Positions 3,543-55,490 of a stretch of DNA of 64,000 nt are shown here, piece by piece. How positions within the stretch are numbered: the stretch's first letter is position 1; each line of letters opens with the position of its first letter. This DNA comes from Nitrosopumilaceae archaeon. GTDB taxonomy: Archaea; Thermoproteota; Nitrososphaeria; Nitrososphaerales; Nitrosopumilaceae. The translations under genes and the position numbers were made by a program. The stretch covers positions 288,001 through 352,000 of the forward strand of contig OZ242365.1 in assembly GCA_965208905.1 (NCBI GenBank), read 5' to 3'. The notes under the pieces are model-generated. The model did not search any database. It was not told where the DNA came from and saw only the letters and a program-made list of their open reading frames with translations.

Positions 3543-3582
3543 GTATATTGACTACCTTTATGGCAAATTAATGTTTAACGTG

Positions 3583-40268: not shown

Positions 40269-41387
40269 TTATGTTTGTTTTAACTGTCCCATATTATCTA
40301 AAATGTCGTGGATGTTATTAGGTCCAAGTTTTATATTGATATTATATTGCTTTATTTTATATTGTTTCATATCTGGAGGTATTTTTAATAATTTATACTG
40401 TCTGGATTCTGCATTAAAAGGTAGGTTCAATCTCTCGGATATAGCAACCATCTGTTCATAGTCAGGCAATGCCAGTATCGGGTTTAGTTGGGCATCGTAT
40501 ATTCGATGGAGTAATTTATCTACATATAAGCCTGGAAAAATGATTCTAGATATAGGTAATGTTATGTGTGATATGTTGTGATCTTTTGCGATATTAATGG
40601 CTAGTTCGGTGGCAAGTATCACCATATTTAAAAATCCTTGACCTCCTGATGATACTTTATGTATGGTTAATTGTATTTTTTTGTGTATTAAGTATGGAAG
40701 TATTTTATTGATTATCTTTGCCAGATTTGTCAAATCACTCTCCTTTCTGTATAATGCAAGAATTTTGGTATTGTAACCCATCCGTATGGTCTCCAAACAT
40801 GCCATGGCAGACATTTCATCAAATATGCACGATACCGCCTTGCCCTGCACCCCCATTGGCAAGCCTCCAAAGCACTTGTCTTCAAATATGGATATGTAAG
40901 CATTACTCTGTGTCATGTATACATATAGTAGTTTATCATGTCGGTCTTGTGTACCAGGTCGTACATTTTGTGATGACTTTTCTTCTATTATGGATGAAGT
41001 TATTGCCATCTCGGCATCTTTTGGTAGAAATCCTCTAGAGTATCCTTCTACCTGCACATAAAATGTCTCGTTTCCCAATAATAGATTTCCACCTACTTCA
41101 GTGGCGACCTCTACAATGTCGTTGTAATCATTCTTTATCTGTCTGGCTATGAGCACTTTTTCTATGCCGTATAGCCGCTCAATGGCCGATGACGCAAAGA
41201 CCGGATCATGAGCTTCGACCAGTATAAGGTGCTCATCTCTACATATTGAGGTGTATGGTTCGTCTTCAATCTTTAGGACGTTTTTTATGCATCGTATTAA
41301 CGTGCGTATATACTTTTTAGCGTGTAGTGATGTAAATACAACCACAAACGATTTTGTTGCCATCGTGTACATGACTACACCCCCCAC
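40269..41387 (-). CDS. ThiI-like THUMP-domain protein with degenerate PP-loop
   Basis: LYGIEK, THUMP-like region, GGLP.G.QGK followed by SCIFDEMS instead of LSGGxDS. Confidence 0.7.
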   Translation of the reverse strand: MGGVVMYTMATKSFVVVFTSLHAKKYIRTLIRCIKNVLKIEDEPYTSICRDEHLILVEAHDPVFASSAIERLYGIEKVLIARQIKNDYNDIVEVATEVGGNLLLGNETFYVQVEGYSRGFLPKDAEMAITSSIIEEKSSQNVRPGTQDRHDKLLYVYMTQSNAYISIFEDKCFGGLPMGVQGKAVSCIFDEMSAMACLETIRMGYNTKILALYRKESDLTNLAKIINKILPYLIHKKIQLTIHKVSSGGQGFLNMVILATELAINIAKDHNISHITLPISRIIFPGLYVDKLLHRIYDAQLNPILALPDYEQMVAISERLNLPFNAESRQYKLLKIPPDMKQYKIKQYNINIKLGPNNIHDILDNMGQLKQT

Positions 41388-42981
41388 ATAATTTCTTTTT
41401 GGAGTCGTGTCTATGATATGAACTATGCCTATAAGTAGCGGGGTTCCTCCCGCAAAGTCGGGTGATTACACCCCCCGCCATGCGGGATAGCCTGTCAGCC
41501 CAGTTGCTCCAGCAACCCTGTATGAGTGGTGTGGGATCGAGGATTACATCCACACCACGACGGACTTCGCCCAGACTGGCCGAAACCTTACGACCATATC
41601 GGGATACGGCGCTTGTTCGCCGTATGTTCTCCACTGCGTTGACGTCGCGATCTACGCCAACCGTATGGCAGCGGGTGCAGTCTTTTTTATGATAAGCTCC
41701 AGTTAGTGGGGTTCTACATGCAGCACATAGCTTGGATGTGTTGTGTGGACGCATATGTAATGCCTCTACTCCCAAAAATTGGGACTTTTCATAAATTAAA
41801 TTCGATGCTTTTCGCATCATGGCAGAATGTAACCTGCGACGCATATTATGGCCAAACTTCCCATTCTTCTGCCAACCATACGATATATGGGTTAAATCCT
41901 CCAACATCACCAAGCACCCGGATTGTGCGGCCCACTGTGCTATACATAACGCTATCACATTCAGCACATGTTCGTGGTGGCGCATGGCTTTGGCCACCCT
42001 GCGCTTTTTAGCATTCTTCCTTGATTTTGTGTGGTTATGTGGTATGCTCAATATGCATCTGCTCATCTGCTTCTTTATCTCGGCGGCCCTCTTGTGTTTG
42101 CCCTCCCTCTTGAGTTTATTGTATCTGCGTTTGAGTTTGCTGTGTAACTTGTGACCACCATGTGTGACTTGTTGCTTTTCTCTGCGCTCCTCCTCTTTCT
42201 TGTGTACAACACACCTTCCGGTACGTGCCGCATATGCGATATTATCATGTGTACGGGTATACGTATTGTTTACATCCTCAGTCTTTGCCCCCTCAATGGC
42301 CTGTATCGTGTATGATAGATCAAACTGTACCATTGTATCTTTATCACCTACGGTGATGTTCTTTTCATTAATATCCACGCCAATTACATCCTTTGGTGTA
42401 CCGCCCACACAGCCCACATCCGTAAGTAGTTCGATAATCTCTGACTTGCCGTGTGGGTGGGATTTTTCAACCTTGGGCACTTTGTTGTAATATGTAATGG
42501 TATATGTGGTTGGCGTGATCCACAACTCTCCCAACTCATTTTGCCCTATTTTACGTACCACATCTGAAGAGACGGGAATTGCTATCATATGTGGGTGTTT
42601 TGATGAGCCAACATTTGCAATAGCCATATATCCACCCGCTATCGGATTCAGCCTCCAATCTTGGTTTTTCAACTTTACAACCGGATTACGAAATATAGGT
42701 TCAGACACCTTCGTGCCCTGCGCAGCCTTTGTATTGTACGTTTTATGGGCGGCAACCCCGTCCCGTATGGCGGTCTGCGTTATGGACGAATATACTTTGG
42801 GGTCAGGGCCGCGCATTATATGATATATTAATGCGTTAACACCATAGGTATTCTTCCCCGTGTTATCTGCTATAATGTACGCCACTTCTGCCACCTTCCT
42901 GACATGTTCAAACACATGTCGCATGCCCAAATTTTTTGTGTATGGACGTGTTACTGCCCTGCTATTTTTGACTAGAGCCAT
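41317..42981 (-). CDS. tnpB: TnpB-like RNA-guided nuclease (large, Lys/His-rich insert); ORF reads through the TIR into host DNA
   Basis: RuvC-I GVDIN, RuvC-II LEDL, TSKLCAAC...CTRC Zn finger, RuvC-III DRDVNA; ATG 42981 preceded by TTAAATA at about -29. Confidence 0.85.
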   Translation of the reverse strand: MALVKNSRAVTRPYTKNLGMRHVFEHVRKVAEVAYIIADNTGKNTYGVNALIYHIMRGPDPKVYSSITQTAIRDGVAAHKTYNTKAAQGTKVSEPIFRNPVVKLKNQDWRLNPIAGGYMAIANVGSSKHPHMIAIPVSSDVVRKIGQNELGELWITPTTYTITYYNKVPKVEKSHPHGKSEIIELLTDVGCVGGTPKDVIGVDINEKNITVGDKDTMVQFDLSYTIQAIEGAKTEDVNNTYTRTHDNIAYAARTGRCVVHKKEEERREKQQVTHGGHKLHSKLKRRYNKLKREGKHKRAAEIKKQMSRCILSIPHNHTKSRKNAKKRRVAKAMRHHEHVLNVIALCIAQWAAQSGCLVMLEDLTHISYGWQKNGKFGHNMRRRLHSAMMRKASNLIYEKSQFLGVEALHMRPHNTSKLCAACRTPLTGAYHKKDCTRCHTVGVDRDVNAVENIRRTSAVSRYGRKVSASLGEVRRGVDVILDPTPLIQGCWSNWADRLSRMAGGVITRLCGRNPATYRHSSYHRHDSKKKLCGGCSHVHDGNKIVCGCIYITTR

Positions 42982-43057
42982 CACATAGTACGGTTCAATA
43001 ACGTATTTAACACTATCCAACACACATCAACTATCACCCGACTTTGCGGGAGGAATC
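41442..43057 (-). mobile_element. Non-autonomous TIR element (1616 bp) carrying only tnpB; 25-bp TIRs, 8-bp TSD AGTAGCGG
   Basis: GGTTCCTCCCGCAAAGTCGGGTGAT at 41442-41466 and ATCACCCGACTTTGCGGGAGGAATC at 43033-43057 (1 mismatch); AGTAGCGG at 41434-41441 and 43058-43065. Confidence 0.9.
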
Positions 43058-43098
43058 AGTAGCGGTAAGGCTTTTATGGATTGTAAAAACCGCATATT

Positions 43099-43410
43099 AT
43101 GATGCCCAGTTGCCCTGAATGCACTGCCACCGAGAAGAAGAAGGTTCAAGCTAGATACGAAGCTAGTGTTCCCGAGGAGGATCGCCGACGTGATGATTTG
43201 TACAAACTCTTTGATGCCATAGACTTTCCCATGAAGGCGGATCCAAGCACTAAGCACTTTATCTGTAAACGATGTGGATTATACGCTACCAGAGAGCAAG
43301 TCTCCGATATACGAGCCAGACTGAACCGTCGGGTAAAGACCCGTCAGGACATACAGGATGATTATTTAGACTGGTGGCAAAAGAGCAAAAAAGACAAAAA
43401 TTTAGCTTGA
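43099..43410 (+). CDS. Small Zn-finger hypothetical protein
   Basis: CPEC ... CKRC; DYLDWWQ C-terminus. Confidence 0.75.
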   Translation: MMPSCPECTATEKKKVQARYEASVPEEDRRRDDLYKLFDAIDFPMKADPSTKHFICKRCGLYATREQVSDIRARLNRRVKTRQDIQDDYLDWWQKSKKDKNLA

Positions 43411-43412
43411 TA

Positions 43413-44177
43413 TTATTTATTAATTGATTTTCTAAAGACTTTAGCTATTATACTATCTGTTAGAAACGGTATTGCGTGTTTTATTATTACGCCGGCCCTG
43501 GCTATAGTGGGAACCGTTATCTCTGCCCGGGGAGAGTTTGAAGCTCGCAGTATGGCTTTGGCAACTGATTGTGGACTTAAAGCATATCCGGATTTGTCTA
43601 CAAATCCGGTGCGCACCATTATGGGACTGACCACCGTCACACCTATACCGCTTTCTAATAATTCATGTCGCAGTCCCTCTGAAAATCCCAGCATTGCAGA
43701 TTTTGATGCGCAGTATGCAGATATCATGGGAAGTCCAAAACTGGCGGCTAGTGATGCCACATTGACTATGTGCCCACTCCCCCTTTGCACCATATGTGGT
43801 AAAAGACCCTTTGTCATGTATACCATACCAAAATAATTTGTATTCATTATTTGTTTTATTTTAGAAATATCTGTATTTATGACAGTATCAATCTCTATTA
43901 TGCCTGCATTATTTACCAATATGTCGGGGCAGCCTATCTGGTCCAGTACGCGTTTTATAGTCTGGTTTACCTGTTGTTGATCTGTTACATCACATTTTAT
44001 TATAGTTATTTGGCCATTATCTTTTTTTATTTTTTTGTATAACGACTCTAAGAGATCTTCTCTTCGTGCTATGGCGATTACATGGGCCTTTTTATTGGCA
44101 AAGAGCAAGCTCGTTTCCCATCCTATACCTGAAGATGCACCGGTTACAAGGACTATTTTGTCATCAAATTTGGCCAT
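43413..44177 (-). CDS. Short-chain dehydrogenase/reductase
   Basis: TGASSGIG, NNAG, YCASK. Confidence 0.9.
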   Translation of the reverse strand: MAKFDDKIVLVTGASSGIGWETSLLFANKKAHVIAIARREDLLESLYKKIKKDNGQITIIKCDVTDQQQVNQTIKRVLDQIGCPDILVNNAGIIEIDTVINTDISKIKQIMNTNYFGMVYMTKGLLPHMVQRGSGHIVNVASLAASFGLPMISAYCASKSAMLGFSEGLRHELLESGIGVTVVSPIMVRTGFVDKSGYALSPQSVAKAILRASNSPRAEITVPTIARAGVIIKHAIPFLTDSIIAKVFRKSINK

Positions 44178-44564
44178 GTATCATATTGTCGCATATGGGT
44201 TATTTTGATTTTTTTATCACATGCATGAGATATAGACTATGGCAATCAATTCGACACTAATCGTGGAGTAATTCTTCTTTCCATAGAAACATGCCTGAAG
44301 CCTCAGAGATGCGTTGGCATCTTTCTCTTTTTTGCATATTTCACGTATTGTTATATTGGCATGAAGTCGTCACCTTTGGGAAGTCATTTGTTATTTATCA
44401 TAAAATTAGTAGTTCACACCGGTACTGTATATAGTAGGTTTTTATGCGAATTTAAATTATGACTTTGTAAGAACTTCAATCATGGCCACCATACAGTAGT
44501 GTTGATGTAAAAGTGAATTTTTATTAAGTATTTATTTTTATTTTTTAAAAAAATAAGTTATTTC

Positions 44565-45332
44565 CTAAATTACCAAAGAAAGAATGTTAGACGTAAACTC
44601 TCCAATATTGGTAGTATACAAGACAATGATACCCATCACCATGCTAAATACTCCTGCCGCATACCTAAAGAGTAATCGTACCCTCTTATGACGGCCTGCC
44701 AATACCAAAGGAATACCCAATAGACCACCCACCAGAGACATTCCAATTGTGGCACCTAAACCAAAGACAAGTGTGAATGCCAGTACAATGTCAGGCCCTT
44801 CCAGTGTAGCGGCAGTCAAGACTATAACGCCTCCACTTCCGGCTAGACCATGCACAAGTCCTATTATGTATGACTTGTGGGTATGGTGGTGTATTCCATT
44901 ATTATGCTCATGTTCGTGGGAATGAACTATTCCATTATTATGCCTGTGAAGGTGCTTGTGAGCAAATTCTAAAGGTGTCTTACCAAACACTACAGTTACA
45001 CCCAATATTAACAGTATCACACCCACCAGTATCTCTAGTCCAGAAAACATCCAACCTTGAATTAGTGATGCGGCCACATAAGCCAGTATTGAAAACAGTG
45101 CCAAAGTTGTGGCATGACCTGCTCCCCATACTGCACCCAGTATGGAGAAGCGTTGCATACTCTCTCGAATTCTTGTTCGTCGTGATTTGTCGACATGTTC
45201 TGCTCTAGCACTTAGGGCGCTCACTGTGGCAATATGATCTGGTTCCAGCGCATGCTGTAAACCCAAAATCAAACCCAGTCCCAATGCAAATGCAGGTGTA
45301 AGCATACCCACATCTGGAGATACATCCACCAT
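44565..45332 (-). CDS. Nickel/cobalt permease (UreH/HoxN-like)
   Basis: HALEPDH, WGAGH, His-rich loop, GLVHGLAGS. Confidence 0.85.
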   Translation of the reverse strand: MVDVSPDVGMLTPAFALGLGLILGLQHALEPDHIATVSALSARAEHVDKSRRTRIRESMQRFSILGAVWGAGHATTLALFSILAYVAASLIQGWMFSGLEILVGVILLILGVTVVFGKTPLEFAHKHLHRHNNGIVHSHEHEHNNGIHHHTHKSYIIGLVHGLAGSGGVIVLTAATLEGPDIVLAFTLVFGLGATIGMSLVGGLLGIPLVLAGRHKRVRLLFRYAAGVFSMVMGIIVLYTTNIGEFTSNILSLVI

Positions 45333-45789
45333 GTATGGTGTGTAGCATAGTATATTAAATTTGTAGGAATAAATTAACAGTGCGTGTGGTTGAACGGGAT
45401 AATAGTGGCAAAGTCATCAGAAATTTAGTGGCCAAGACTGGTAGGAGTATTGAACCTCAATTGTGTGTGCGCACCGACTATATCAGAACAACGCCGTATG
45501 GGCCATGTCGTGATGTTATATCACTAAAATTATAACACGTTATGGGAGGAAAACCAGCATGAGTGATACCCGTCAGATAATATAGGCACTGCGCATCTTT
45601 AAAGGCGTTACAACAATACAAACCATATGGACAAGCAGTACGCCATGGCAGTCATATTGATACTAATCGGCTAGGACTGACTCAGATTGGTGGCGGGCAG
45701 GCGATATTTCTTTTTGGTCTGGGTATTAGTGTTGTCATTATGGCTATAGTGTGAATTGTGGTCATCATAATCAAGGATATACGGCGTAA

Positions 45790-46100
45790 CTAGTAGTGAT
45801 GCATCTGTTTCTGTTCAATGCCCTCCTGCTCCCAGTAGTTGTGGTTTCTTCCGGGGTCTTTGTGAGTATGAACCTTACCATCAATGTGGGACTGTGTATT
45901 ATCCATTATGTCCTTCATGAATACATCATCGACTCTCAGTATTTGGTTGGCGGCCTCTACAGCAGCCTTTAGGGCCCTGTCTCTTTACTGCGCAAGTATC
46001 CACTATATTGCGTATATGTTTTACACTGTGAGATATTGTATCAATACTCCATCTACCACAAGTAATGATAGGCAGGTTCAGCCATACCCCACAAGACGCT
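45790..46100 (-). pseudogene. C-terminal remnant of a group II chaperonin with His-rich tail
   Basis: IVDTCAVKRQ/(frameshift)ALKAAVEAANQILRVDDVFMK...HIDGKVHTHKD..HNY..QMHHY*; aligns with [15 protein letters not shown] of the thermosome at 53796-55490. Confidence 0.7.
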
Positions 46101-46108
46101 AAATTATA

Positions 46109-48631
46109 TCATTTATAGTTTAAAACTAGTTCACGTATATCATTCGCAGATATCTCATTATTTAGAGTCAGTGAGAGTATATTTAGCAAAGCATCATTCA
46201 GTTTGGGGTTTGTAAAGAGCATATCCGCATCACTAGTTGATATGTCATCAATACCATCATCTAGTAGCTGCAACATAACTCTTAGAAGCGTTACCCTTTC
46301 AGACTCGGTAAGACCAAGCAGGGCATCGTTGATTGCAGTATGACTACATATACCCGCCACAACATCCGAAGAGTAGACATCCGGTATTATCACATTATTA
46401 GATACGGCAAATAGTAGCAACGTGGCTGGGCATGTAGACTCGCCGGTCGGTATCATTATTTGATCCATACCCGTGGATGGCATCTCGCCTGTATGCACTA
46501 TTTCGCCATCGTGTGTCAAAAAGTAGCGCAGTGTATCAGTACCCATTGAGTCTACATTTATGATGAGGGATTCATTTGAGGATGCAGCATCAAACTCAAC
46601 ACTAGTTACATGTGGATATGTAGGTTCAACGAAATGAGACCACATTCCGACTTTATACGGATAAGAGTCATCTCTGAACTCCCGTATTAGGGCTATACCA
46701 TCTTTATCATTGTATGATGAAAGATAAAATGATCCATGACCAATCTCGGCGTGGCCGTGTTGGTCTATCCACTTTATGCTGGCCAAATACCTATCAGTGT
46801 AATACGAGTTGTCCAGGCCGGCTATGGCTTTTGGAGCTATGGCATAATTTGCGAAATGTTCTAGGTATGCACGAATTAGGATAACATCATCACTATCAAT
46901 CACAGACAACCATGGGACACTCTTGCTGGTGGACTCGGTCGACGAAAATGCTCCCTTATCATCTTTAACAATCTGCTCCATTGCAAAGAATATCTCCCAT
47001 GGTGTGCTTGTCCATCGTGTGGCCGTGGTTCCAATCTCATCTTCATCAAAGTGCCAATAGTTGACATACACCTCTAGTGTGTCATCATCTAGTTGGCGAA
47101 CTGCTACAAAGGTGTCTTCAAGGAACGGTCCTACTGTAGTCGTATACTCAGAGTCTTTTGTATTGTCTGAGACTCCAGTGTTAGTACCCCATTCATACAT
47201 AAAGTAAACACCAAAGAGTATGTCCCGCATGTCAATGGTAGGGCCATGATGCCAATCACTGAAGGTGTAATCCATCGTTACAACACTAATAGCAGTGGTA
47301 CCAGAGCCTACAGGGGTCCATTTTTGTATGTATGAATTCCAAGTTATGGCATCAGAGGGCACTTCCAAGGTGCCATCAGGGCCAGCAGTGTCAACTGAGC
47401 GTTCTACTCTCACTGGGATTATACCACCAGTATATGGATGTGAGATTGCTGCAGAGTCTGAGAGAGGGTTGACTATATGGCGACTGTACACATCACCGTA
47501 TCCGGCCACAGGGTTCCAGGATGACTGGCCAAGATGTTTCATGCCAACTCGGAGTACAACATCACCTGTCTGAACATTGTTTAAAGTGAGAGGGTTGGTT
47601 ATGCCGCCACTTACAGAGTTTATCACACCTTTAACATTATTGTTCACTACAAATGTGTCATATGGTGCAGCCACAAATACGCGCACTGCCTCCTGTACGC
47701 CCAAAGTTAGAGCCTCGCGGAGCAGTTGTGTACGTTCATCCTCGTCTTCATATTCACCATTATACACTGTACGGGTGATTCTATCGAGTTTGTCGTTCTC
47801 ATATGACCAAAATTCAGGGTTCTGAGCGCCAGGCATATTGGTACGCCATGGTGCATAGAATACTGCCAAACTACTATCATCATACTTGTTAAAACTGCCT
47901 CCCCAACCTTCCGTATATACATGCCAGCCTAAATCTGCGGGATTAGAGCCATATACCACCTCGTATGCCAGTGCCAGGTTCCCATACATTCTCTCCACTA
48001 CAAACCCCATATTCTCAAGATTAGAGGCTAGTGTGTTCCCAATGGAGTGTCGTATCGGGTCATCATCCCGGATAAATAACTTTAGTGTGACAGGTTTGTC
48101 ATCCATCATCCAGACATCTTTCTTCATGGTGGCGCCAGCTTCGGTCATGGCGGCATCAATCATTGTCTTGGCGGCGGCTAGATTGTACTGTATACCAAAG
48201 GATGCAATCGGCTCTAACATTCTGGTGTAGTCAGGATCAAATGGTGCATAGGGGGATATAATAGCGGAGCCGTACCCATCCAGTAGTTGGGATACAATAT
48301 CTTCTCTGTCTATCATGTAATTTATGGCAGACCGTATCTTTGTAATGCTAAATGGATTAAATTCATCAGTAGGTGCTGGATTCAACAGTATGCTAAGGGT
48401 ACCTCCAGCTGGGTTTGTGTATACATCAAGGTTGTCAAATCCTTCCAAGAGATGCGCAGGTACATTATGATAGTACATATCTAATAGGCCATCATCAACC
48501 AGTTCCAGGGCATGCTCGGCACTGTCCACACGATAGAACAGTACAGAGTCAACGTAGGGAAGGGCTGCAGCTGATGATACTGTCGATACTACGCATAATA
48601 GAGCAGTCAGTACTAAGATCTGCGTATTCAC
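46109..48631 (-). CDS. Family 5 (peptide/nickel) ABC solute-binding protein with acidic C-terminal extension
   Basis: Signal peptide; NPF...IRSAINYMIDRE, YTEGW, WHHG..I...DI. Confidence 0.8.
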   Translation of the reverse strand: MNTQILVLTALLCVVSTVSSAAALPYVDSVLFYRVDSAEHALELVDDGLLDMYYHNVPAHLLEGFDNLDVYTNPAGGTLSILLNPAPTDEFNPFSITKIRSAINYMIDREDIVSQLLDGYGSAIISPYAPFDPDYTRMLEPIASFGIQYNLAAAKTMIDAAMTEAGATMKKDVWMMDDKPVTLKLFIRDDDPIRHSIGNTLASNLENMGFVVERMYGNLALAYEVVYGSNPADLGWHVYTEGWGGSFNKYDDSSLAVFYAPWRTNMPGAQNPEFWSYENDKLDRITRTVYNGEYEDEDERTQLLREALTLGVQEAVRVFVAAPYDTFVVNNNVKGVINSVSGGITNPLTLNNVQTGDVVLRVGMKHLGQSSWNPVAGYGDVYSRHIVNPLSDSAAISHPYTGGIIPVRVERSVDTAGPDGTLEVPSDAITWNSYIQKWTPVGSGTTAISVVTMDYTFSDWHHGPTIDMRDILFGVYFMYEWGTNTGVSDNTKDSEYTTTVGPFLEDTFVAVRQLDDDTLEVYVNYWHFDEDEIGTTATRWTSTPWEIFFAMEQIVKDDKGAFSSTESTSKSVPWLSVIDSDDVILIRAYLEHFANYAIAPKAIAGLDNSYYTDRYLASIKWIDQHGHAEIGHGSFYLSSYNDKDGIALIREFRDDSYPYKVGMWSHFVEPTYPHVTSVEFDAASSNESLIINVDSMGTDTLRYFLTHDGEIVHTGEMPSTGMDQIMIPTGESTCPATLLLFAVSNNVIIPDVYSSDVVAGICSHTAINDALLGLTESERVTLLRVMLQLLDDGIDDISTSDADMLFTNPKLNDALLNILSLTLNNEISANDIRELVLNYK

Positions 48632-48720
48632 GGTTCTAAATGCATAATTGTATGTTAAAAGCGTTTTGAAGAGTTATATGGGAATCACATGTTTGAGTCC
48701 GAGCGATACTATGATGGTAT

Positions 48721-48860
48721 GGTTCTTGTGCAAACACGGTTGTTTCCCAGCTTGCAACATTACCCATCACGCCAGAGAACGATGGTACATGGAACACCTC
48801 GCTCTTTGGCATGACGTGTAATGTGGTGGGCGCAGTATCAACCGTATTTACGAGAGAACC
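48721..48860. mobile_element. Degenerate MITE-like element (140 bp) with GGTTCT ends
   Basis: GGTTCTTGTGCAAACACGGTTG at 48721-48742 vs reverse complement of 48839-48860 GGTTCTCTCGTAAATACGGTTG (17/22); no TSD visible. Confidence 0.5.
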
Positions 48861-48982
48861 TAAATTCTGTCAATTGGTAGTCTATCGTCTTATGAAGTGG
48901 GAGACTAAAACATTAGAGCAGATAATACAGGACACTAAAGGTGAATACAGATTATGTTCGGCAACGACATTTCAGACGAGTG

Positions 48983-50440
48983 TCACACATCAAAGTACAG
49001 GTAGAACTCGTGGGGATGGGGCCGTACAGATATCTCCAATTGATCTTGCTTTCCCAACTCTATCAGTCTCTCAATAACATCGTGAGTAAATATTGGATTT
49101 AGAAAGTCACAGTCACTCTCTAGCGAGTCTAGTGCTTCACCCAAAGTAGCTGGTAATGTATCTATACCCCTCTGCCTACGTTCCTTCTTACTCATCTTGA
49201 AGATGTCTTCCTGAACGGGGTCAGCAGGACTTGTCTTCTTTCTGACACCATCCATACCCGCAGCAGTAACTGCTGAAAAGACCAGATACGGATTTGATGA
49301 CGGATCCGGTGCTCTAAACTCCAGCCGTTTCAATTTGGCATGTCTAGAACCCTTGAAGTGTTTTGGTACACGAACTATTGCAGAACGGTTACTTGAACTC
49401 CATGCAATATAGGCAGGAGCTTCATAGCCAGGAACCAGTCGATGATAAGAGTTTGTAGTAGGATTACAGATTGCAGATAGTGCTTTTGCGTGATCCATAA
49501 TGCCCCCACAAAAGTACAAGGCCAACTGGCTTAATTCATCAGGCGCATTCTCATCAAAGAATGCGTTCTCATCACCCTTCCAAAGACTGACGTTGGTGTG
49601 CATACCGCTTCCCGCATCCATGGTTATAGGTTTGGGCATCATCGTGGCCACCTTGTTGAATTTTTGCGCCACGTTTCTGACAATAAACTTGTAGGACTGG
49701 GCCGAGTCGGCGGCATTGGTCAGCTTATCATACATAATATCTATCTCACATTGACCTGCAGTAGCCACTTCATGGTGATGATTATCACATAATATGCCAA
49801 AACTAGAGTTCAGTATGTTGACACACTCATTACGGAAGGGTGTCAATGTGTCTGAAGGAGTGCTAGGATAGTAGCCGCGTTTGAGTCCCATCGGATAGCC
49901 AGTACCCTCCTGATTCCATGGAGCTTCTTGGGATTCTATAGAGTAAGACTGTCCTTTATAGGGTGTCAATACATCCCAATGTATCTTATCAAAGACAAAG
50001 AATTCAACTTCCGGACCCCAAAAGCTCCCGTATCCGGCATCTGTAATGAATTGTTCAGCCTTTTGCGCAATACCTCTAGGATCTCGGGACAGCCTTCCGC
50101 GACCCTCGCCCCAGTATACATCACAGATTAACCGTGCTGTCCTGTTTTCGGTAAGCCAGGGTATTATGGCGTATGTGTTTGGGTCAGGCTTTAGTACAAG
50201 ATCTGAATCCTCTATGCTGGCAAATCCCACTATGGATGAACCGTCCAGCTTTGGTAGACCGTATTTCATCTGCTCTGGAGTAAAGGTCTTTCTGGATATT
50301 GTGGTGTGATGGAAACGGCCAGGTAGGCTGGTAAACTGCATATCAATGAATCTAATCCTGTCCTGTTCTAGCATCTCAAATACTTGTTCTGAAGTGTATG
50401 TGATACGTTTAGGGTCTCCACCGTTGAATCTGTAAGGCAA
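48983..50440 (-). CDS. glnA: Glutamine synthetase type I
   Basis: DGSSI.GF, GPEVEFF, HHEVA, MPKP...GSGMH, RLVPGYEAP, RLEFRAPD. Confidence 0.95.
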   Translation of the reverse strand: MPYRFNGGDPKRITYTSEQVFEMLEQDRIRFIDMQFTSLPGRFHHTTISRKTFTPEQMKYGLPKLDGSSIVGFASIEDSDLVLKPDPNTYAIIPWLTENRTARLICDVYWGEGRGRLSRDPRGIAQKAEQFITDAGYGSFWGPEVEFFVFDKIHWDVLTPYKGQSYSIESQEAPWNQEGTGYPMGLKRGYYPSTPSDTLTPFRNECVNILNSSFGILCDNHHHEVATAGQCEIDIMYDKLTNAADSAQSYKFIVRNVAQKFNKVATMMPKPITMDAGSGMHTNVSLWKGDENAFFDENAPDELSQLALYFCGGIMDHAKALSAICNPTTNSYHRLVPGYEAPAYIAWSSSNRSAIVRVPKHFKGSRHAKLKRLEFRAPDPSSNPYLVFSAVTAAGMDGVRKKTSPADPVQEDIFKMSKKERRQRGIDTLPATLGEALDSLESDCDFLNPIFTHDVIERLIELGKQDQLEISVRPHPHEFYLYFDV

Positions 50441-50487
50441 TTATTAATTCAGTTATATAGAACCGTGATTTAAGCTTTAAGAACAAC

Positions 50488-51036
50488 ATGGGAGATATTA
50501 CTGTAAACCAACTGCACGGAATTGTCTTGCGTGAATCGGAGAGTGATGCCATATTAGAGATAGATGCCAATACATATCAGAGTATATCAGAGCTTTTGAG
50601 TCGTCTACGAAGACAAGCCTTTGATGGTATGGAGAATGATCTACGAGACAGTCTGGTGAATGCAATGTCTGATCTAAGTGGAATGTTGTTGCGCATGCGA
50701 TTGGAGAAAGCCTCTAAATCTGCTAATGTAGACACCAACAATTTGGTGGACGAGGAGAGATACATTCTGGATGCTTATGAGGAACAACAAGAGAGATTGG
50801 CCTTGGTAGCCGCAGCAACATCCAAGGGGAAGACGCAGTTGCTGAAATATGTTTCAGATAGATATAGAAGTAGAATGATCACGGTGAGACTTCTCAAAGA
50901 TGTTGATACATTGACCGGATCAGACTATGAGTCTTATGGTCCCTTTGAGGCAGAAGATGTTGCGACCATTCCATATGTCAACGCGCGAGCATTGATGTCG
51001 CAGGGCAGCGCCACTCGTATCAGATGGACGGGTTGA
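50488..51036 (+). CDS. GINS complex subunit (Gins51-like)
   Basis: Helical A domain (RLEKA..NL..EE) followed by B domain YGPFEAEDVATIP..NA..L. Confidence 0.75.
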   Translation: MGDITVNQLHGIVLRESESDAILEIDANTYQSISELLSRLRRQAFDGMENDLRDSLVNAMSDLSGMLLRMRLEKASKSANVDTNNLVDEERYILDAYEEQQERLALVAAATSKGKTQLLKYVSDRYRSRMITVRLLKDVDTLTGSDYESYGPFEAEDVATIPYVNARALMSQGSATRIRWTG

Positions 51037-51104
51037 ATTAGTACAGCTCGTCTGTCTTGTCACACCCATGGATTAAATAAATGAGGCACATCTACTGAAG
51101 CGTA

Positions 51105-51389
51105 GTGTCTCATACGGGTGTGGATGTAATAGATTTTCTATACTATACAATATATCCCGTACTAGGTATATTCGTGGTAGAAGGAATCAGCCGTCTGGCA
51201 CGAATACCAAAGTGGATAAAGTTGTGGGCACAAGCAGGGGTCTCCATGGGGTTTGGTATATATTATTGGTTCATACTGCCAGCCCCCCAAAACTTTCCAC
51301 TGACAGGTCTTGTATTACTCGCTTTAGCTGCAGCCCTCATATATCAGGGTAAGCGCGCCCGCATCTCTCCAGACAAGAGTCCATACTAA
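51105..51389 (+). CDS. Small membrane protein (3 TM)
   Basis: Three hydrophobic segments; TTAAATA upstream. Confidence 0.7.
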   Translation: MSHTGVDVIDFLYYTIYPVLGIFVVEGISRLARIPKWIKLWAQAGVSMGFGIYYWFILPAPQNFPLTGLVLLALAAALIYQGKRARISPDKSPY

Positions 51390-51604
51390 CGTCCCAGAAA
51401 TCGTTTAAAGAAGCCCTTTTTGTCGGTATTACCGTCTCGTATAACCTTCTTTTGACCAAACTTTTTTGCCCGTATGAGTGTAAGTTTTACGCATCGGTGC
51501 TCTTCAGGAAGGCGATGTTCTGGGCAAAAGTAGTCCCCACAGTAGTTACATTGAAACGGCATATCGGTCATCTCTCCACAGTAACAACACCGCTCTTGCA
51601 TCAT
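51386..51604 (-). CDS. AN1-type zinc finger protein
   Basis: C..C....MPFQCNYC..YFC.EHRLPEEHRC. Confidence 0.85.
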   Translation of the reverse strand: MMQERCCYCGEMTDMPFQCNYCGDYFCPEHRLPEEHRCVKLTLIRAKKFGQKKVIRDGNTDKKGFFKRFLGR

Positions 51605-51643
51605 AATGCAAGAATAGCTCTTCTAACTAATATAGTTTCAAGA

Positions 51644-53109
51644 GGGAATTATATACAAAAGTACACAACCCCAATTCTGAGAGTTAATGCCTGAACCACG
51701 GATCGCGTCCATACAACTCCCCTTAAATACCAGCATACCGTATTATATATTATGATACGAATAGTTAAGGTACCGCTACGGAGAGATGTGCGGTTCGCGG
51801 AGTGGGCGCACCGCACGAATCATGCGTCAAGATATGTGTACAACCGCGCCGTATCAGAGTATTTGTTTGGCGGCGAATACATGGAGAGGGTGGTAGTGGA
51901 CATCCTGCAGCCCTTTAAACTACCGGGCAAGCTGGATTTTACATCAGGTATGCTGGACGATGACTACCATACATATGATTTTGGGCCGTCAAAGAGGGCA
52001 TTAAAGTACGGCATGTTCAAGCAGCTTACGGAGTGGCGCGCTGAACATGCATGGGTATCTGACTTGCCTATGGTGTTTGGCAGGGGCGCCATACAGGATG
52101 CCTCCGTCGCATGTAGACGAGTTGTAGATGACAACTCCGGCCACGCGCCATACCGCCGCAAAGATGGCCGCATCATACTTAGTTCCGTTACACCGCCTGT
52201 ACGGAAAGATAGCCATACGGTACATATCCCCGGATATGGTATTGTAGAGACCGCCAATCCCATCAATGTATTATGGGACATGCGGTCATTCAAGATAGTT
52301 GATGTTACCAAACGGGTGGACAAGCATACCGTACAATCAGACCACATGTTTGAGCTGCATATTGCCATATATGAACCGATGGAACCGCACCGTACTACGG
52401 GTACAATACGGGGTGTCGATGTGGGAGGCAAGCACCTCGCCGTCACGGTAGATACGGACGGCAACGTTACAATACACAACACCCGCCATAGAGCAATCCT
52501 GCGGGAGATTGACGCTCTCAAGAGTTTGCGCGACCGCAAGACACGGCATGGCCGGAAGTGGCATATATTGAATGACCAAATAAAGCGGCTATACAGGAAG
52601 GCCAACAACATAGCTGCGAACACCATAAATCAGACGATTGTACAGATAACCAATGGTGTGGACGCAGTCGTGGTCGAATCGCTCTCCGTAAAGGATATGA
52701 CCACCCATGGCGGGAATTACAAACGCGCCATGAACCGTTCAATGCGGGAGAACCATGTTGGGGAGTTCCTGCGCAAGCTTGCGCAGTGGTGTGATATACA
52801 CAACATACCGCTGTTGGGGGCATCGGCCAAATATACGAGCCAGACGTGCCATGTGTGTGGGACGGTGGATGCCGAGTCGCGTATATCACGCGACAAATTC
52901 ATTTGCACTAATTGTACCAGGGTATTCCACGCGGATGTCAATGCCGCCTGGAATATTCTGTATAGGGCGGCGGGGAAGATCGTCCTAAGACGGCCAGGGC
53001 ACAAGGAGGACTACAAGCCAACACCTTCTATGCTCCACTGTATACAGAAAAGTCGTCAGAAAAGGCATGAGTGTACAGCCGAGGCTGTGTACTTTTGTAT
53101 ATAATTCCC
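51644..53109 (+). mobile_element. Non-autonomous TIR element (1466 bp) carrying only tnpB; perfect 24-bp TIRs, 8-bp TSD TTTCAAGA
   Basis: GGGAATTATATACAAAAGTACACA at 51644-51667 and its exact reverse complement at 53086-53109; TTTCAAGA at 51636-51643 and 53110-53117. Confidence 0.92.
51752..53104 (+). CDS. tnpB: TnpB-like RNA-guided nuclease
   Basis: RYVYNRAV helix, RuvC-I GVDVG, RuvC-II VVESL, TSQTCHVCG...CTNC, RuvC-III HADVNAA; stop codon lies inside the right TIR; TTAAATA box upstream. Confidence 0.9.
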   Translation: MIRIVKVPLRRDVRFAEWAHRTNHASRYVYNRAVSEYLFGGEYMERVVVDILQPFKLPGKLDFTSGMLDDDYHTYDFGPSKRALKYGMFKQLTEWRAEHAWVSDLPMVFGRGAIQDASVACRRVVDDNSGHAPYRRKDGRIILSSVTPPVRKDSHTVHIPGYGIVETANPINVLWDMRSFKIVDVTKRVDKHTVQSDHMFELHIAIYEPMEPHRTTGTIRGVDVGGKHLAVTVDTDGNVTIHNTRHRAILREIDALKSLRDRKTRHGRKWHILNDQIKRLYRKANNIAANTINQTIVQITNGVDAVVVESLSVKDMTTHGGNYKRAMNRSMRENHVGEFLRKLAQWCDIHNIPLLGASAKYTSQTCHVCGTVDAESRISRDKFICTNCTRVFHADVNAAWNILYRAAGKIVLRRPGHKEDYKPTPSMLHCIQKSRQKRHECTAEAVYFCI

Positions 53110-53111
53110 TT

Positions 53112-53381
53112 TCAAGATATTAGGAATATCAGATATATGGAACCGCCCATCAAGCTAAAGCCCAGGCCCATATATACAACCCGATTATTCTTGTCATATG
53201 TTGACTTCCAGAGTAGTACGCCTCCTAAAAGGCCCAAGAGCAGCACAAATACGCCGGCAATAAGCATGTCACCATCGGTACCAGATACTAGAGGCTGAAA
53301 AAGGCCTGACAACAGCATAAAGAATACTATCAAGTATACGTACTTGAAGGAGGATAATGATTTTGTTGTATTTTCAGGCAA
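53112..53381 (-). CDS. Small membrane protein (3 TM)
   Basis: Hydrophobic 89-aa ORF; its stop codon lies inside the TSD of the adjacent element. Confidence 0.65.
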   Translation of the reverse strand: MPENTTKSLSSFKYVYLIVFFMLLSGLFQPLVSGTDGDMLIAGVFVLLLGLLGGVLLWKSTYDKNNRVVYMGLGFSLMGGSIYLIFLIS

Positions 53382-53418
53382 CTACAAACAGTACGAACAA
53401 AAGTCGGTAATAAATTTA

Positions 53419-53790
53419 GGGAATTATATACGAAGTTAACGCCAATTGGTGTCAATCTTGTCTTGTCCTAGAGCCTTTGATAGTGGCGCGTATGGTGTTG
53501 CATCTCTTTCGAGATCAGCAGCTGCTGCCAAGTGTCTGCCGCCAACACCAACACCCCGCATATTGCCAGTCTTTTTTGGTTTGTACGACACTACTATGCA
53601 TTTGGTTATCTCCCCGCCAAGTAGGTATGATGAGACAGTGTTGTTGTAAACATACCATAAAATGTATGATTCGTGCGGACGGTCCACTCGTATAGTTTTG
53701 TGTTATGCTACAATCTTACCTTGTAGACCGTGTCATGGGTTCCTTTTAGAGGTGACTTTGTATATTGCGCTACTTTCGTGTATGATTCCC
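53419..53790 (-). mobile_element. MITE (372 bp) derived from the 51644-53109 tnpB element family; 8-bp TSD TAAATTTA
   Basis: Ends GGGAATTATATACGAAG and (reverse complement) GGGAATCATACACGAAAG; TAAATTTA at 53411-53418 and 53791-53798; tnpB relics EWTVRTNH, YVYNNTVSSYLLGGE, TGNMRGVGVGGRHLA. Confidence 0.85.
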
Positions 53791-53795
53791 TAAAT

Positions 53796-55490
53796 TTACA
53801 TCATGCCGCCCATATCAGGCATACCACCCATGCCGGGCATTCCTCCCATACCACCCATACCAGGCATACCGCCTTCGGCTCCAGGTGGAGGTCCTGCAGA
53901 CTTTGCAGTGGTAATAACATCATCTATGCGCAATAGCATACAGGCAGCTTCGGTGGCAGCCATGACTACTTGTAGTTTGACAGAGAGTGGTTCAATAATC
54001 TCGCTCTCCTTCATATCAGAGACCGCAGCCTTTGTTACATCAATACCAACCCATCGCTCACCCTTCAAATGGCGGCTTCGTAGGGAGGTCAGTGTATCAA
54101 TGGGATCCATGCCTGCATTCTCTGCCAAAGCCAGTGGTATGGACTCCATGCTGTCGGCGAACTTTTCTGCAGCCAACTGTTCACGGCCATCTAACGTATT
54201 AGACCAATTCTGTAAGCTTGTGGCGACAAATGTCTCGGGAGCTCCACCCCCAGCCACAACTGATGGTCTTAGTGTAACGTCTCGAACCACCATCAACGCA
54301 TCATGTACAGAACGTTCTACTTCATCTACAACTCTTTGTGAGCCTCCCCGGAGCAGTATGGTAACGGATTTTGGATTGTCACAACCTCGTATAAAGACCC
54401 ACTTGTCTTCTTCAATCTTTTGTTCCTCAACAACTTCTGCTACGCCTAGCTTGACACTGGGCAAGTCGTCGAGATTGGTAACTATCTGTGTGCCGGTAGC
54501 CTTGGCTAACTTTGTCAAGTCACTCTCTTTGATACGACGTACTGCCAAGACACCTGCCTTTGCTAGATAGTGTTGAGCCATATCATCAATTCCTTTCTGG
54601 CACAAGACTACGTTGGCGCCGCTGCCAACAATCTTGTCAACCATGGACTTTAACATTCGGTTCTCTTCTTCCAAAAAGATCTTTATTTGTTGGGGGTTTG
54701 AGATGTTTATCTTGGCATCCGTCTCGGTCTTGTTTATCTCCAAAGCAGAGTTTAACAGTGCAATTCGGGCATTTGATACTCTGCGTGGCATTCCACCATG
54801 GACTATCTCTTTGTCCAAAACCACTCCCTTTACAATCTCAGAGTTTTTAATTGAGGCACCTGCCTTCTTCTCCACCTTTATATCATCAACATCTACCTTG
54901 TAATCACCATCATCTTTCTCTGTAACTGACATTACAGCTTGTACCACAATATCTGCGAGTTGATCTGAATCGCTCTTTACTAGTTTTGTTTGCATGGCAG
55001 TTCGTGCCACCTTCTTTAGAGTATCCACATCATCAGCAGACACAGTCTCGCTGATCTCAGCCAAGAAGGAACCTGCCTGCTTTGAGGCCTTTCTGTAGCC
55101 ATCCACAATTATGGTAGGGTGTACATCCTGATTAACCAAAACCTCAGCATTCTCCAATAGGGCACCTGCCAAGACCACTGCAGATGTAGTTCCATCACCC
55201 ACCTCATTATCGGTAGTCTTTGAGATCTCGACGAGCATCTTTGCGGCAGGGTGTTGTACATCTATCTCTTTGAGTATGGTGGCGCCATCATTGGTTATTG
55301 TGACATCGCCCAAAGAGTCCACCAACATCTTGTCCATTCCTCGAGGGCCTAGACTCGTACGTACTATCTCGGCGATTATCTTTGATGCTGCAATGTTGTT
55401 CTTGTGAGCATCACGTCCTTTTGTCTCAGTAGAACCATCTTTTAGTAGCACTACGGGCATCTTTCCCTGAGAAGCCATTTGTACACTCAT
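53796..55490 (-). CDS. ths: Thermosome (group II chaperonin) subunit
   Basis: [19 protein letters not shown]-repeat tail. Confidence 0.95.

Follow-up and report, generated by a model that had tools for sequence, protein, structure and literature searches.

Each of the two tnpB genes analysed here fills a non-autonomous element (el1 and el2) that is bounded by terminal inverted repeats (TIRs) and an 8 bp target-site duplication (TSD), is almost certainly moved by DDE transposases, and is predicted to provide its TnpB with an omegaRNA, a TAM and a guide. We give this joint reading a probability of about 0.8; omegaRNA, TAM and nuclease activity are the predicted part of it. Both elements lie in a window of 64,000 nt (positions 288,001–352,000 of contig OZ242365.1, assembly GCA_965208905.1) from the 2.2 Mb genome of a sponge-associated Nitrosopumilaceae archaeon, and the coordinates of their features are positions within this window.

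Structure of the two elements

Element el1 (41442..43057, minus strand, 1616 bp) has class I (IS6-like) TIRs and a divergent tnpB as its sole cargo. In tnpB orientation, the left TIR (43033..43057) lies at the 5′ end of the gene and the right TIR (41442..41466) at the 3′ end; the 25 bp arms show one mismatch and a perfect stretch of 23 bp. The TSD AGTAGCGG is found at 43058..43065 on the 5′ side and at 41434..41441 next to the 3′ end. Element el2 (51644..53109, plus strand, 1466 bp) has class II (IS1595-type) TIRs and likewise carries only tnpB. Its left TIR (51644..51670) starts with GGGAATTATATAC and pairs with the right TIR (53083..53109) over 24 perfect bp followed by one mismatch, and the TSD TTTCAAGA occupies 51636..51643 and 53110..53117.

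TIRs and exact 8 bp TSDs had been described for both elements in an earlier note on this DNA, which proposed looking for further copies and empty sites. Both were found. The genome holds 12 full copies of el1 (89–99.8% identity, the most alike pair at 99.75%), eight having a TSD that matches at 8/8 positions, and 15 full copies of el2 (79–100%), with perfect TSDs in 11 and a 7/8 match in one more. Because each element is a repeat family, the TIRs and TSDs of el1 and el2 are far above chance. The empty sites each show a single 8 bp copy: for el1, at the orthologous locus of sister genome G005, and for el2, in contig record 16 of run X3, a sponge/marine RNA library represented by contigs that give no RNA ends; this contig passes from 51635 straight to 53110 and so omits 1474 bases, with 8 letters shared. 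With many copies bearing differing 8 bp TSDs and two single-copy empty sites, el1 and el2 are real insertions.

The tnpB gene of el2 (51752..53104, plus strand) encodes 450 aa, has its stop codon within the right TIR, and its product matches guided_TnpB (123.8 bits, cut-off 100) as well as Pfam OrfB_IS605 and TNB. A frame of 450–451 aa is intact in 14 of the 15 copies, DNA identities of 79–93% notwithstanding, codon position 3 is about 2–5 times as diverse as positions 1 and 2, and the D-E-D residues and zinc finger are retained in the TnpBs; these features indicate that TnpB is under selection. The earlier description of a full-length tnpB between TIRs holds for el2 and needs amending for el1, where one surplus C in the run 41471–41476 produces a 568 aa ORF that leaves through the TIR; from its likely ATG at 42981, the tnpB-like frame reads on to 41317 (41317..42981, minus strand). 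The surplus C is also present in the twin copy at 891633, and in the other three of five el1 copies translated through the 3′ end, the frame terminates at the inner boundary of the TIR. In the el1 protein, TNB alone exceeds its cut-off (28.8 vs 26.3 bits). D217, E375 and D460 are invariant across 14 homologues, in which the four zinc-finger cysteines vary little or not at all, in keeping with the RuvC residues and zinc finger noted before. Foldseek searches with a model of the protein gave Cas12f, TnpB, Fanzor or other Cas12 chains as all of the top 42 matches (E ≤ 0.001). The internal TATA box reported earlier corresponds to TTAAATA, 29 nt upstream of the ATG in both el1 (43004..43010, minus strand) and el2 (51723..51729, plus strand), a putative promoter element.

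Genome-wide inventory

The genome contains 75 TNB-domain matches, of which 74 are above the Pfam cut-off. Six-frame searches at E ≤ 0.01 gave no genome match to Y1 TnpA (PF01797) or to serine recombinase/resolvase (PF00239); as positive controls, these were detected in 6 and 12 of 14 genomes, respectively. At least seven families of TIR-bounded TnpBs are present. Their TIR class conflicts with the TnpB phylogeny, unrelated clades having one TIR class and close relatives different TIRs, and DDE-type ends therefore captured tnpB more than twice, instead of in the two independent events proposed earlier.

A separate origin of the two layers would be given if IS605/IS1341-type tnpB units had inserted secondarily into existing MITEs, and MITEs with the same ends do exist (53419–53790 in the window, and a 115 bp example at genome position 658457). 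However, in five of five families (el1, el2, A, B and F) the tnpB frame opens 35–110 nt in from one end and has its stop within the opposite TIR, leaving no space for an internal IS605 right end. The copy search found no tnpB cassette of any family without TIRs in this genome, the TIR-bounded architecture is kept between species and genera, and the genome's want of a TnpA match also argues against such insertions. This origin, raised in the earlier note as a possible objection, is very unlikely.

Transposase partners

The terminal 12–13 bp of el2 are identical to the ends of four intact IS1595-family elements of this genome (2131, 2131, 2837 and 2690 bp), both termini of which read GGGAATTATA and which have perfect 8 bp TSDs (AAAATTAT twice, AAAAAAAT and CAATTTTA). 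Two IS1595 ORFs of 319–320 aa score 138–140 bits on DDE_Tnp_IS1595 and contain the IS1595 zinc ribbon as well. The IS1595 copies here also bear passenger genes (methylase-HNH). IS1595-family ends (GGGAATTATATAC...) are found on el2 and on the families related to it, A, B and H, and class II TIRs with an 8 bp TSD surround TnpBs of 55% (G006), 31% (G213) and 29% (G002) identity.

The ends of el1 and of the unrelated TnpB family F are IS6-like (GGTTCCTCCCGCAA...), and the corresponding transposase is of the DDE_Tnp_IS240 type, about 390 aa long. No intact transposase with class I TIRs was found in the source genome: element E, 1536 bp long and bounded on either side by class I TIRs, is a decayed, frameshifted homologue of DDE_Tnp_IS240-type genes, and 13 other IS240-type genes have different or unrecognisable ends. 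Intact class I elements occur in sister genomes G004 (1482 bp, 392 aa, 8 bp TSD AGCAAAAG) and G009 (1455 bp, 388 aa, 8 bp TSD), their transposases scoring 20.1 and 30.4 bits, respectively, against Pfam DDE_Tnp_IS240 (cut-off 27). Classical IS6 transposases are shorter, at about 240 aa. A composite in the source genome consists of a TnpB element F, 8 bp and element E, with the perfect repeat TTAAACTC at both outer sides. F and E are jointly bounded by one 8 bp repeat, and therefore one F end and one E end were used in a single event.

Mobilisation in trans by DDE transposases, as suggested earlier, is well supported by these comparisons, for el2 by the intact IS1595 elements with the same termini and TSD length in the same genome, and for el1 by the decayed partner here, the intact ones in sister genomes and the composite with one TSD. 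The autonomous partners sought in the earlier note are thus at hand in this genome for el2, and for el1 only in G004 and G009. Were the TnpB-like protein to act as the transposase, through a RuvC (RNase H-like) domain that cuts and joins the TIRs, the elements would be autonomous. That tnpB is the sole gene of el1 and el2 would fit this, as would the near-identity of some el1 copies in a genome with no intact class I partner, and the case of G213, where 7–8 class II TnpB elements are accompanied by a partial IS1595 homologue only (residues 26–219 of 319). Against it, identical ends and 8 bp TSDs occur on elements with true DDE transposases, the mixing of TIR classes and TnpB clades fits a swappable shell better than a protein specific to its own termini, and the F–E composite has one TSD for both. 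We know of no TnpB that transposes DNA, and consider an autonomous TnpB transposase very unlikely.

Flanking motifs and candidate omegaRNA

In tnpB orientation, TTA lies directly 5′ of the el1 TSD (43066..43068, minus strand) and ATAG directly 5′ of the el2 TSD (51632..51635, plus strand), and these are the candidate TAMs. The flank consensus of the el1 family is W-T-A followed by C or T, the first TSD base; TA is found in 14/15 left-end flanks (p = 1e-15) and at the mirror position in 1/14. For el2 the consensus is A-T-N-G, with the final G in 10/11 left-end flanks (p = 3e-6) and the mirror C in 5/18, while F family flanks have TT in 8/9 (motif TATTG; mirror 2/11). Mirrored positions are at background level in all three families. 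The position of the motif is the one expected of a TAM if the guide starts with the TSD.

The motif may instead reflect a preference of the DDE transposases, or of a host factor, for certain target sites, with TnpB acting otherwise or elsewhere. All class II elements, the four IS1595 elements included, have AT-rich TSDs, so the transposase has a sequence preference, and G-ending upstream flanks such as GATG also stand beside some class II MITEs and beside the elements of the H and G213 families; the el2 motif could be partly of this kind. On the other hand, the motifs are single-sided and linked to tnpB orientation, and near-perfect TIRs offer a transposase no left or right cue. Families with the same terminal sequence also differ in motif: el1 and F have their terminal 14 bp in common, and el2 and A share 13 bp, yet G is found in 15/16 el2 flanks and 0/7 A flanks by hand count. 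We hold transposase or host preference possible but doubtful as a full account. A role for TnpB in reading the TAM and helping to choose or license the insertion site, that is, in target selection and not in survival after insertion, would fit the position of the motif, which lies exactly at the edge of the 8 bp staggered cut and is near-universal in el1 (14/15), and would suit a putative IS6-like partner that may not excise. However, there is no evidence of contact between TnpB and a transposase, in known RNA-guided transposons the insertion point lies tens of bp away from the target and not at the PAM, and survival bias is the simpler account of the pattern; TnpB-licensed insertion is improbable.

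The 3′ terminal stretch of about 200 nt of el2 (52900..53109, plus strand) is a candidate omegaRNA scaffold that overlaps the tnpB end and the TIR. Position 3 diversity there is 0.146, compared with 0.251 upstream (p = 2e-5), and the p values obtained for the fall over the last 200 nt are, in all, 2e-5, 0.017 and 0.035. The folding z of the el2 stretch is −1.9 to −2.9; for the last 150 nt window it is −1.9 to −3.6 in four of four families tested, which places it with the most negative windows of every element. A hairpin within it, at 53071–53092, is kept despite sequence changes in the G006 copies. A hairpin with TTTT after it, just inside the right end of el2, could be a terminator and not scaffold. 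Rfam gave no match for the candidate omegaRNA.

Proposed mechanism

The first steps are established or strongly supported, namely that tnpB with its own TATA-like promoter fills the space between the TIRs of DDE-transposase insertion sequence families, that el1 and el2 are moved by transposases encoded elsewhere, and that IS1595 and IS6-like transposases both make 8 bp staggered cuts, which accounts for the length of the TSDs. The expressed TnpB would then load an omegaRNA derived from the element's terminal ~200 nt. The transcript would overlap both the TIR and the 3′ end of tnpB and continue into the flank, so that the guide would be the 8 bp TSD plus the next bases, the right TSD copy of el2 (53110..53117) being its predicted first 8 nt. 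An unoccupied or precisely excised site would read motif, TSD, flank and so present TnpB with a TAM followed by a target; after cleavage there, repair off an occupied copy would restore the element. The benefit would be limited to insertions beside a correct TAM, which would leave surviving copies with a family-specific, one-sided motif. How guide and TAM work when the target is duplicated, a question posed in the earlier note, has a candidate answer in the flanks. IS6 transposition is replicative. If this applies to the IS6-like partner there is no excision to repair, and the TAM pattern, strongest in el1, would need allele drive and not restorative homing.

Comparison with known systems

DDE-associated TnpBs with inverted terminal repeats have been reported by Altae-Tran et al. 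2023, PNAS (PMC10691335), where solo TnpBs with ends like those of transposase-bearing elements were taken as mobilised in trans. The general idea was thus already published in 2023, and the background given in the earlier note, with IS200/IS605 and IS607 as the hosts of TnpB, is out of date. The elements described there resemble el1 and el2 in inverted terminal repeats, trans mobilisation and a tnpB 3′ end near the transposon end. The partner family named in its main text is IS630, and a review (PMC13565253) gives ISL2, IS630 and IS1031, whereas the partners here are IS1595 and IS6-like; the supplementary lists may include these. As far as the main text describes its elements, those here also differ in that tnpB is never in cis with a transposase, in a genus-level expansion without any TnpA, and in the one-sided motif upstream of a variable 8 bp TSD.

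Fanzor1 and Fanzor2* (Yoon et al. 2023, NAR, PMC10711439) are similar in that their non-autonomous elements, bounded by TIRs and TSDs, carry a TnpB-family nuclease and nothing else, and in having a guide RNA that crosses TIR and TSD, as predicted for el1 and el2. For Fanzors, the text proposes the short fixed TSD as part of the RNA scaffold or TAM. In contrast, the variable TSD of 8 bp here leaves guide as its sole possible role, with the candidate TAM outside it; the hosts are archaeal, and the proteins have the usual size of a TnpB.

The IS1341 group (tnpB-only IS200/IS605) shares the lone, multi-copy tnpB with no transposase in cis. According to the review text (PMC13565253), however, IS200/IS605 elements have neither TIRs nor TSD. 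They depend on Y1 TnpA, for which this genome gave no match. Insertion sequences of the IS1595 and IS6 families and their derived MITEs agree with el1 and el2 in terminal sequences, 8 bp TSDs and dependence on a DDE transposase, and differ in that el1 and el2 carry tnpB in place of a transposase, which they either lost or never possessed. In addition, the IS6-like transposases here are about 390 aa long with a weak IS240-domain match. The IS1595 and IS6-like partners may be new, as may the one-sided, family-specific motif that immediately precedes the TSD.

Structure, copies and empty sites of the two elements

The elements el1 and el2 are, at a probability of roughly 0.8, non-autonomous TnpB elements mobilised by DDE transposases. 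El1 (41442-43057, minus strand) ends in a 25-bp inverted repeat with one mismatch and has AGTAGCGG on either side, and el2 (51644-53109, plus strand) ends in inverted repeats that are perfect for 24 bp and then show one mismatch, with TTTCAAGA on either side. Each carries one long ORF. [quoted passage not shown]

The genome holding the window is a single contig of 2,214,775 bp. The search for further TIR-bounded copies, proposed in the earlier note, gave 12 full copies of the el1 family (89-99.8% identity, besides truncated ones) and 15 of the el2 family (79-100% identity), most with TSDs of their own. With element ends set by the terminal hexamer, perfect TSDs (8/8), all different, were present at 8 of 12 copies of el1, 11 of 15 of el2, and at 4/8 and 3/7 copies of two further TnpB families, F and A. 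Several other copies in this set match at 7 of 8 positions and the remainder lack a TSD, as is expected for some copies after recombination between them.

Two empty sites settle that el1 and el2 are true insertions. In another genome of the genus (G005) the flanks of el1 are contiguous at 97-98% identity, with the 8-bp target present once. For el2, a contig of RNA-library run X3 links window position 51635 to 53110 with 8 letters common to both sides, and the 1474 bases it skips equal el2 plus one TSD. Neither empty site retains both 8-bp copies or any TIR sequence, remnants that the earlier note had named as refuting its reading.

TnpB proteins and absence of canonical partners

The 450-aa product of el2 is clearly a TnpB by its predicted domains: it scores 123.8 bits against NF040570 (guided_TnpB, NCBIfam; cut-off 100), and matches the Pfam families OrfB_IS605 (35.2 bits) and TNB (zinc ribbon, 56.4 bits). 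Its three RuvC motifs (GVDVG, VVVESL and HADVNAA) align to the solved TnpB structure 8iaz. The el1 product is far more divergent, with TNB as the sole Pfam domain over its cut-off (28.8 vs 26.3 bits) and a guided_TnpB score, 30.6 bits, under the cut-off. The RuvC D-E-D residues and the CxxC...CxxC zinc finger are present in both proteins, and in an alignment of 14 homologues of el1 D217, E375, D460, C433 and C436 never vary, while C449 and C452 are almost invariant. An AlphaFold model of el1 (mean pLDDT 68.5) was searched by Foldseek, and all 42 matches at E <= 0.001 were Cas12f, TnpB, Fanzor or other Cas12 chains; whole-chain TM values were low (0.2-0.3) and the best domain-level TMt was 0.59-0.60. 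A PDB sequence search with el1 gave nothing significant; its top matches, integrin I-domains at E of about 0.01, were taken as chance.

The copy of el1 in the window has a 568-aa frame that reads out through the TIR. This is an accident of the local sequence: a single additional C within the run at 41471-41476, shared with a 99.75% identical twin at genome position 891633, removes the stop codon, and the other three of the five copies translated through the 3' end stop at a TAA overlapping the inner edge of the TIR. A TTAAATA box, the putative promoter, lies 29 nt 5' of the likely ATG in el1 and el2 alike. Frames of 450-451 aa are kept in 14 of 15 el2 copies and frames of 517-534 aa in 9 of 12 el1 copies, and diversity at third codon positions is several-fold above that at positions 1 and 2 over most of the gene length; intact frames and excess third-position diversity together indicate that purifying selection acts on the TnpB protein.

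A six-frame search of the genome found 75 matches to the TNB domain, 74 of them over the cut-off. The same whole-genome search gave no match to the Y1 HUH TnpA of IS200/IS605 (PF01797), which was positive in 6/14 control genomes, and none to the serine recombinase (PF00239), positive in 12/14. The features of IS200/IS605 (no TIR, no TSD, subterminal hairpin ends) are contradicted by the 24-25-bp TIRs and by the 8-bp TSDs that most copies have, and those of IS607 (serine-recombinase TnpA, no TIR or TSD) fail on the presence of both TIR and TSD. The alternative of IS605 tnpB units nested secondarily in MITEs was rejected.

IS1595 elements share the ends of el2

The class II ends (GGGAATTATATAC...) are common to el2, to the TnpB families A (1420 bp), B (1639 bp) and H, and to small MITEs. 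They also bound four larger elements (2131, 2131, 2837 and 2690 bp), each with a perfect 8-bp TSD and an intact transposase gene of the IS1595 family; an 8-bp TSD is typical of this family. For el2, a candidate for the autonomous partner sought in the earlier note exists in the same genome in four intact examples. The terminal 12-13 bp of el2 (GGGAATTATATA[C]) are those of the 2837- and 2690-bp elements, and 10 terminal bp are shared with the two 2131-bp elements. A genome search for the IS1595 transposase gave four matches of 140-142 bits with open frames of 320-323 aa, and hmmscan of two such proteins (319-320 aa) returned DDE_Tnp_IS1595 at 138-140 bits, plus the IS1595 zinc ribbon. Two of the IS1595 elements carry a passenger gene, an N6/N4 DNA methylase fused to an HNH nuclease domain, which is intact in one (locus L001, 553-1917) and split into two frames in the other (L002, 1487-2945).

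In a genome of another genus (G213), seven or eight TnpB elements (L038, L034, L065, L066) have class II ends and 8-bp TSDs; the IS1595 transposase is represented there by a partial homologue only (62% identity over residues 26-219), which counts against the explanation.

Other class II elements lie in or near the window. A 372-bp MITE at 53419-53790 has class II ends (GGGAATTATATAC and GGGAATCATACAC) and a perfect 8-bp TSD, TAAATTTA; with its TSDs (53411-53798) it is separated from el2 by 300 bp and immediately follows the end of ORF 53796..55490, which is on the minus strand. The 3' end of this ORF contains, at 53802-53873, five overlapping copies of a 27-nt unit at 9-nt spacing (CATGCC/CATACC..., family D1). 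An A-family element of 1420 bp (genome 352058-353477; class II ends, TSD 7/8) begins 58 bp beyond the last base of the window and is 99.86% identical to the copy at 2062478. Two B-family elements (1455264-1456902 and 2049469-2051107), about 594 kb apart and in the same orientation, are 100% identical; the left flank of the first equals the right flank of the second over 8 bp (TAATTTCC) and the inner flanks are unmatched, which points to a rearrangement or a replicative event.

IS6-like elements share the ends of el1

The class I ends (GGTTCCTCCCGCAA...) are common to el1, to the unrelated TnpB family F (1514 bp, 464 aa, with Pfam TnpB domains) and to a 1536-bp element, E. The ends of el1 (GGTTCCTCCCGCAAAG) fit the TIR start GG(T/C)TC... 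and resemble the consensus end of IS6. The reading frames of E are homologous to the DDE_Tnp_IS240-type genes present in this genome and are broken by frameshifting. Intact versions of E were found in sister genomes: one in G004 is 1482 bp long, with a 392-aa ORF, 28-bp TIRs with one mismatch and the TSD AGCAAAAG, and about twenty copies are present in G009, including a 1455-bp one whose ORF is 388 aa long. Against PF13610 (DDE_Tnp_IS240; cut-off 27) the G009 protein scores 30.4 bits, above the cut-off, and that of G004 20.1, below it; the rve domain is under its cut-off on both. Because the match to the IS240 domain is weak, these transposases are called IS6-like and not IS6. The putative autonomous partner of el1 is intact in G004 and G009 and is represented in this genome by the decayed E only. 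No intact class I transposase was found in this genome, which counts against the explanation, and class I ends were not found around its 13 IS240-type genes.

A few of these 13 genes show a single end of the GAACTGTCCCA type where one would be expected. This motif, the end of some G-family TnpB elements, has 63 matches genome-wide with one mismatch allowed, some of them near IS240-type genes, including four in the window at 10511, 24481, 30405 and 40281 (genome 298511, 312481, 318405 and 328281).

A composite at 493-3566 of locus L003 (genome 924772-927845) consists of F, inverted, followed by the 8 bp AGCGTTGA and then E, and the pair is enclosed by a perfect 8-bp repeat, TTAAACTC. The single outer repeat implies that one F end and one E end were used in one insertion, and shows that the ends of TnpB elements and of transposase elements are handled together. 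By its layout the F-E pair is a composite or cointegrate-type product, and its single outer TSD is one hint, and one only, of a replicative cointegrate mechanism.

A solitary class I-type end, GGTTCCTCTCGCAAAGACGGGTGG, occurs at 59579-59602. The roughly 360 nt that follow it hold part of an el1-type tnpB together with the final 25 codons of an IS240-type transposase, and the region looks like a patch of decayed elements.

Distribution, phylogeny and number of captures

El2-type TnpBs occur in 8 of the 9 other genomes of the genus and in none of 31 genomes that were searched to cover 31 other genera of the order; in a sample of the phylum they were found in 5/401 genomes and 2/161 genera. Around TnpBs that share only 55% (G006), 31% (G213) and 29% (G002) identity with el2, the class II end and an 8-bp TSD are retained, and the tnpB stop codon again falls 5 nt short of the element end. 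Two further families of this genome, G and J, have other kinds of TIR and still 8-bp TSDs. A third family, I (about 465 aa), has inverted-repeat ends AGAGTTTATGCGTAAT... and groups with el1 in the tree; no TSD was seen in its three copies (genome 63123-64591, 187538-189006 and 1028509-1029977).

A maximum-likelihood tree of 27 representative TnpBs has long branches, which make its finer topology unsafe. El1 and F, both with class I ends, lie on opposite sides of its deepest split (100/98), and the class II families B and H nest with the G family, whose TIRs differ (100/99). Such discordance between TIR class and TnpB phylogeny implies that captures or end-swaps were many, and the earlier note's two independent captures are not borne out.

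Flanking motif and candidate TAM

Every left end found (the left being the tnpB 5' side) was counted, with its flank read in the orientation of tnpB. For el1, the two bases preceding the TSD are T-A in 14/15 sites (p = 1e-15) and the first base of the TSD is C in 11/15. For el2, a G directly precedes the TSD in 10/11 (p = 3e-6), with A and T three and two places further up (ATNG), and F has T-T in 8/9 (p = 3e-9), within TATTG. The mirrored positions past the right TSD are at background (1/14, 5/18 and 2/11 for el1, el2 and F). As inverted repeats the TIRs are so nearly perfect that they give a transposase nothing by which to prefer one side according to the orientation of the element. The motif also differs between el1 and F despite equal terminal bases. 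A hand count gave G in 15/16 el2 flanks (subfamilies added) vs 0/7 A flanks with the same terminal bases, with the caveat that flanks ending in G are also seen beside some MITEs and further TnpB families with class II ends. The 7 A-family sites, from 2-3 subfamilies, show no clear motif. A metagenome scan with the el1 alignment found 16 loci, all too distant (26-35% identity, C-terminal part only) to be used for replicating the el1 motif.

That the flank motif is the TAM, the motif that TnpB needs beside its target, is a reading to which we give slightly less than an even chance. The motif lies exactly where the TAM must lie if the guide comes from the DNA flanking the right end. The guide would then be transcribed from the DNA beside that end, first the TSD and then the flank. 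An empty site would read TAM-TSD-flank; an occupied site would offer on its left the TAM with 8 matching bases only, and on its right a full match without the TAM. TnpB might in this way restore or drive the element at TAM-adjacent sites and so filter which DDE insertions survive, with the caveat for the restoration step that the IS6-like partner may not excise at all.

Candidate omegaRNA

The tnpB frames run into the right TIR, so any scaffold of the guide RNA (omegaRNA) must overlap the 3' end of the coding sequence. Over the last 200 nt, diversity at third codon positions falls below the upstream value in el2 (0.146 vs 0.251, p = 2e-5), el1 (0.104 vs 0.155, p = 0.017) and F (0.122 vs 0.172, p = 0.035). 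The folding z of the last 150-nt window is -1.9 to -3.6 in el2, el1, F and A; it is among the most negative windows of each element and the single most negative in A only. A hairpin that uses the inner part of the right TIR of el2 is kept, despite sequence changes, in an el2 subfamily and in G006. The drop in diversity and the structure fit a candidate omegaRNA scaffold. Rfam found no family on el1 or el2, and its two weak matches lie elsewhere, far under their gathering scores. Several pieces of RNA-library contigs, in which RNA ends are not visible, fall on the el2 tnpB at 90-99% likeness, and one assembled contig (run X2, record 14), likewise without RNA ends, extends from within an el2-type right end into sequence flanking a different copy.

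Discussion

TnpB, from which Cas12 descends, is in wide use as a compact genome editor. To our knowledge, its natural role has been worked out for IS605 and IS607 only, which excise scarlessly. The compact genome studied here carries about 75 copies of tnpB and lacks TnpA altogether, with shells of DDE transposons of at least two, probably more, kinds, and this system shows that TnpB cassettes and transposon ends recombine freely. In substance the earlier note was right to see TnpB mobilised by DDE-type elements; it understated the number of captures and overstated the novelty.

As a wider model, judged from sequence and somewhat less likely still than the assignment of the TAM, TnpB in this archaeal genus may have been re-housed many times in shells with DDE ends, with the TAM outside the variable 8-bp TSD and a guide that starts with the TSD. 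TnpB would hence recognise only an empty or precisely excised site, restore the element there and decide whether an insertion persists, a geometry that would be undescribed for prokaryotes. The system offers a natural setting in which to test whether 'restorative homing' guided by RNA extends to DDE elements, be they cut-and-paste or replicative, and how guide and TAM are laid out when the target is duplicated. It yields falsifiable TAM predictions for three nucleases: ATNG for el2, WTA for el1 and TATTG for F.

The kind of arrangement is already known. Altae-Tran et al. 2023 (PMC10691335) report TnpBs associated with DDE transposases and bounded by inverted terminal repeats. Their sections on solo TnpBs report ends nearly identical to those of transposase-bearing elements and infer mobilisation in trans. 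The relevant passages of a 2026 review (PMC13565253) name ISL2, IS630 and IS1031 as the DDE families and argue that TnpB is rarely associated with DDE transposases in prokaryotes. The available excerpt of the thaumarchaeal IS catalogue of Krupovic et al. 2019 (PMC6563490) does not mention the arrangement. TnpB in IS1595- or IS6-type shells was not found in the literature searched; the supplements of PMC10691335 may list DDE families. The partners, the scale, the end-swapping and the geometry with the TAM outside the TSD appear to be new variants. Fanzor RNAs extend across the TIR and TSD, according to the parts of Yoon et al. 2023 (PMC10711439) that deal with them, and the TnpB system described here is a prokaryotic parallel to the Fanzors carried by eukaryotic TIR transposons.
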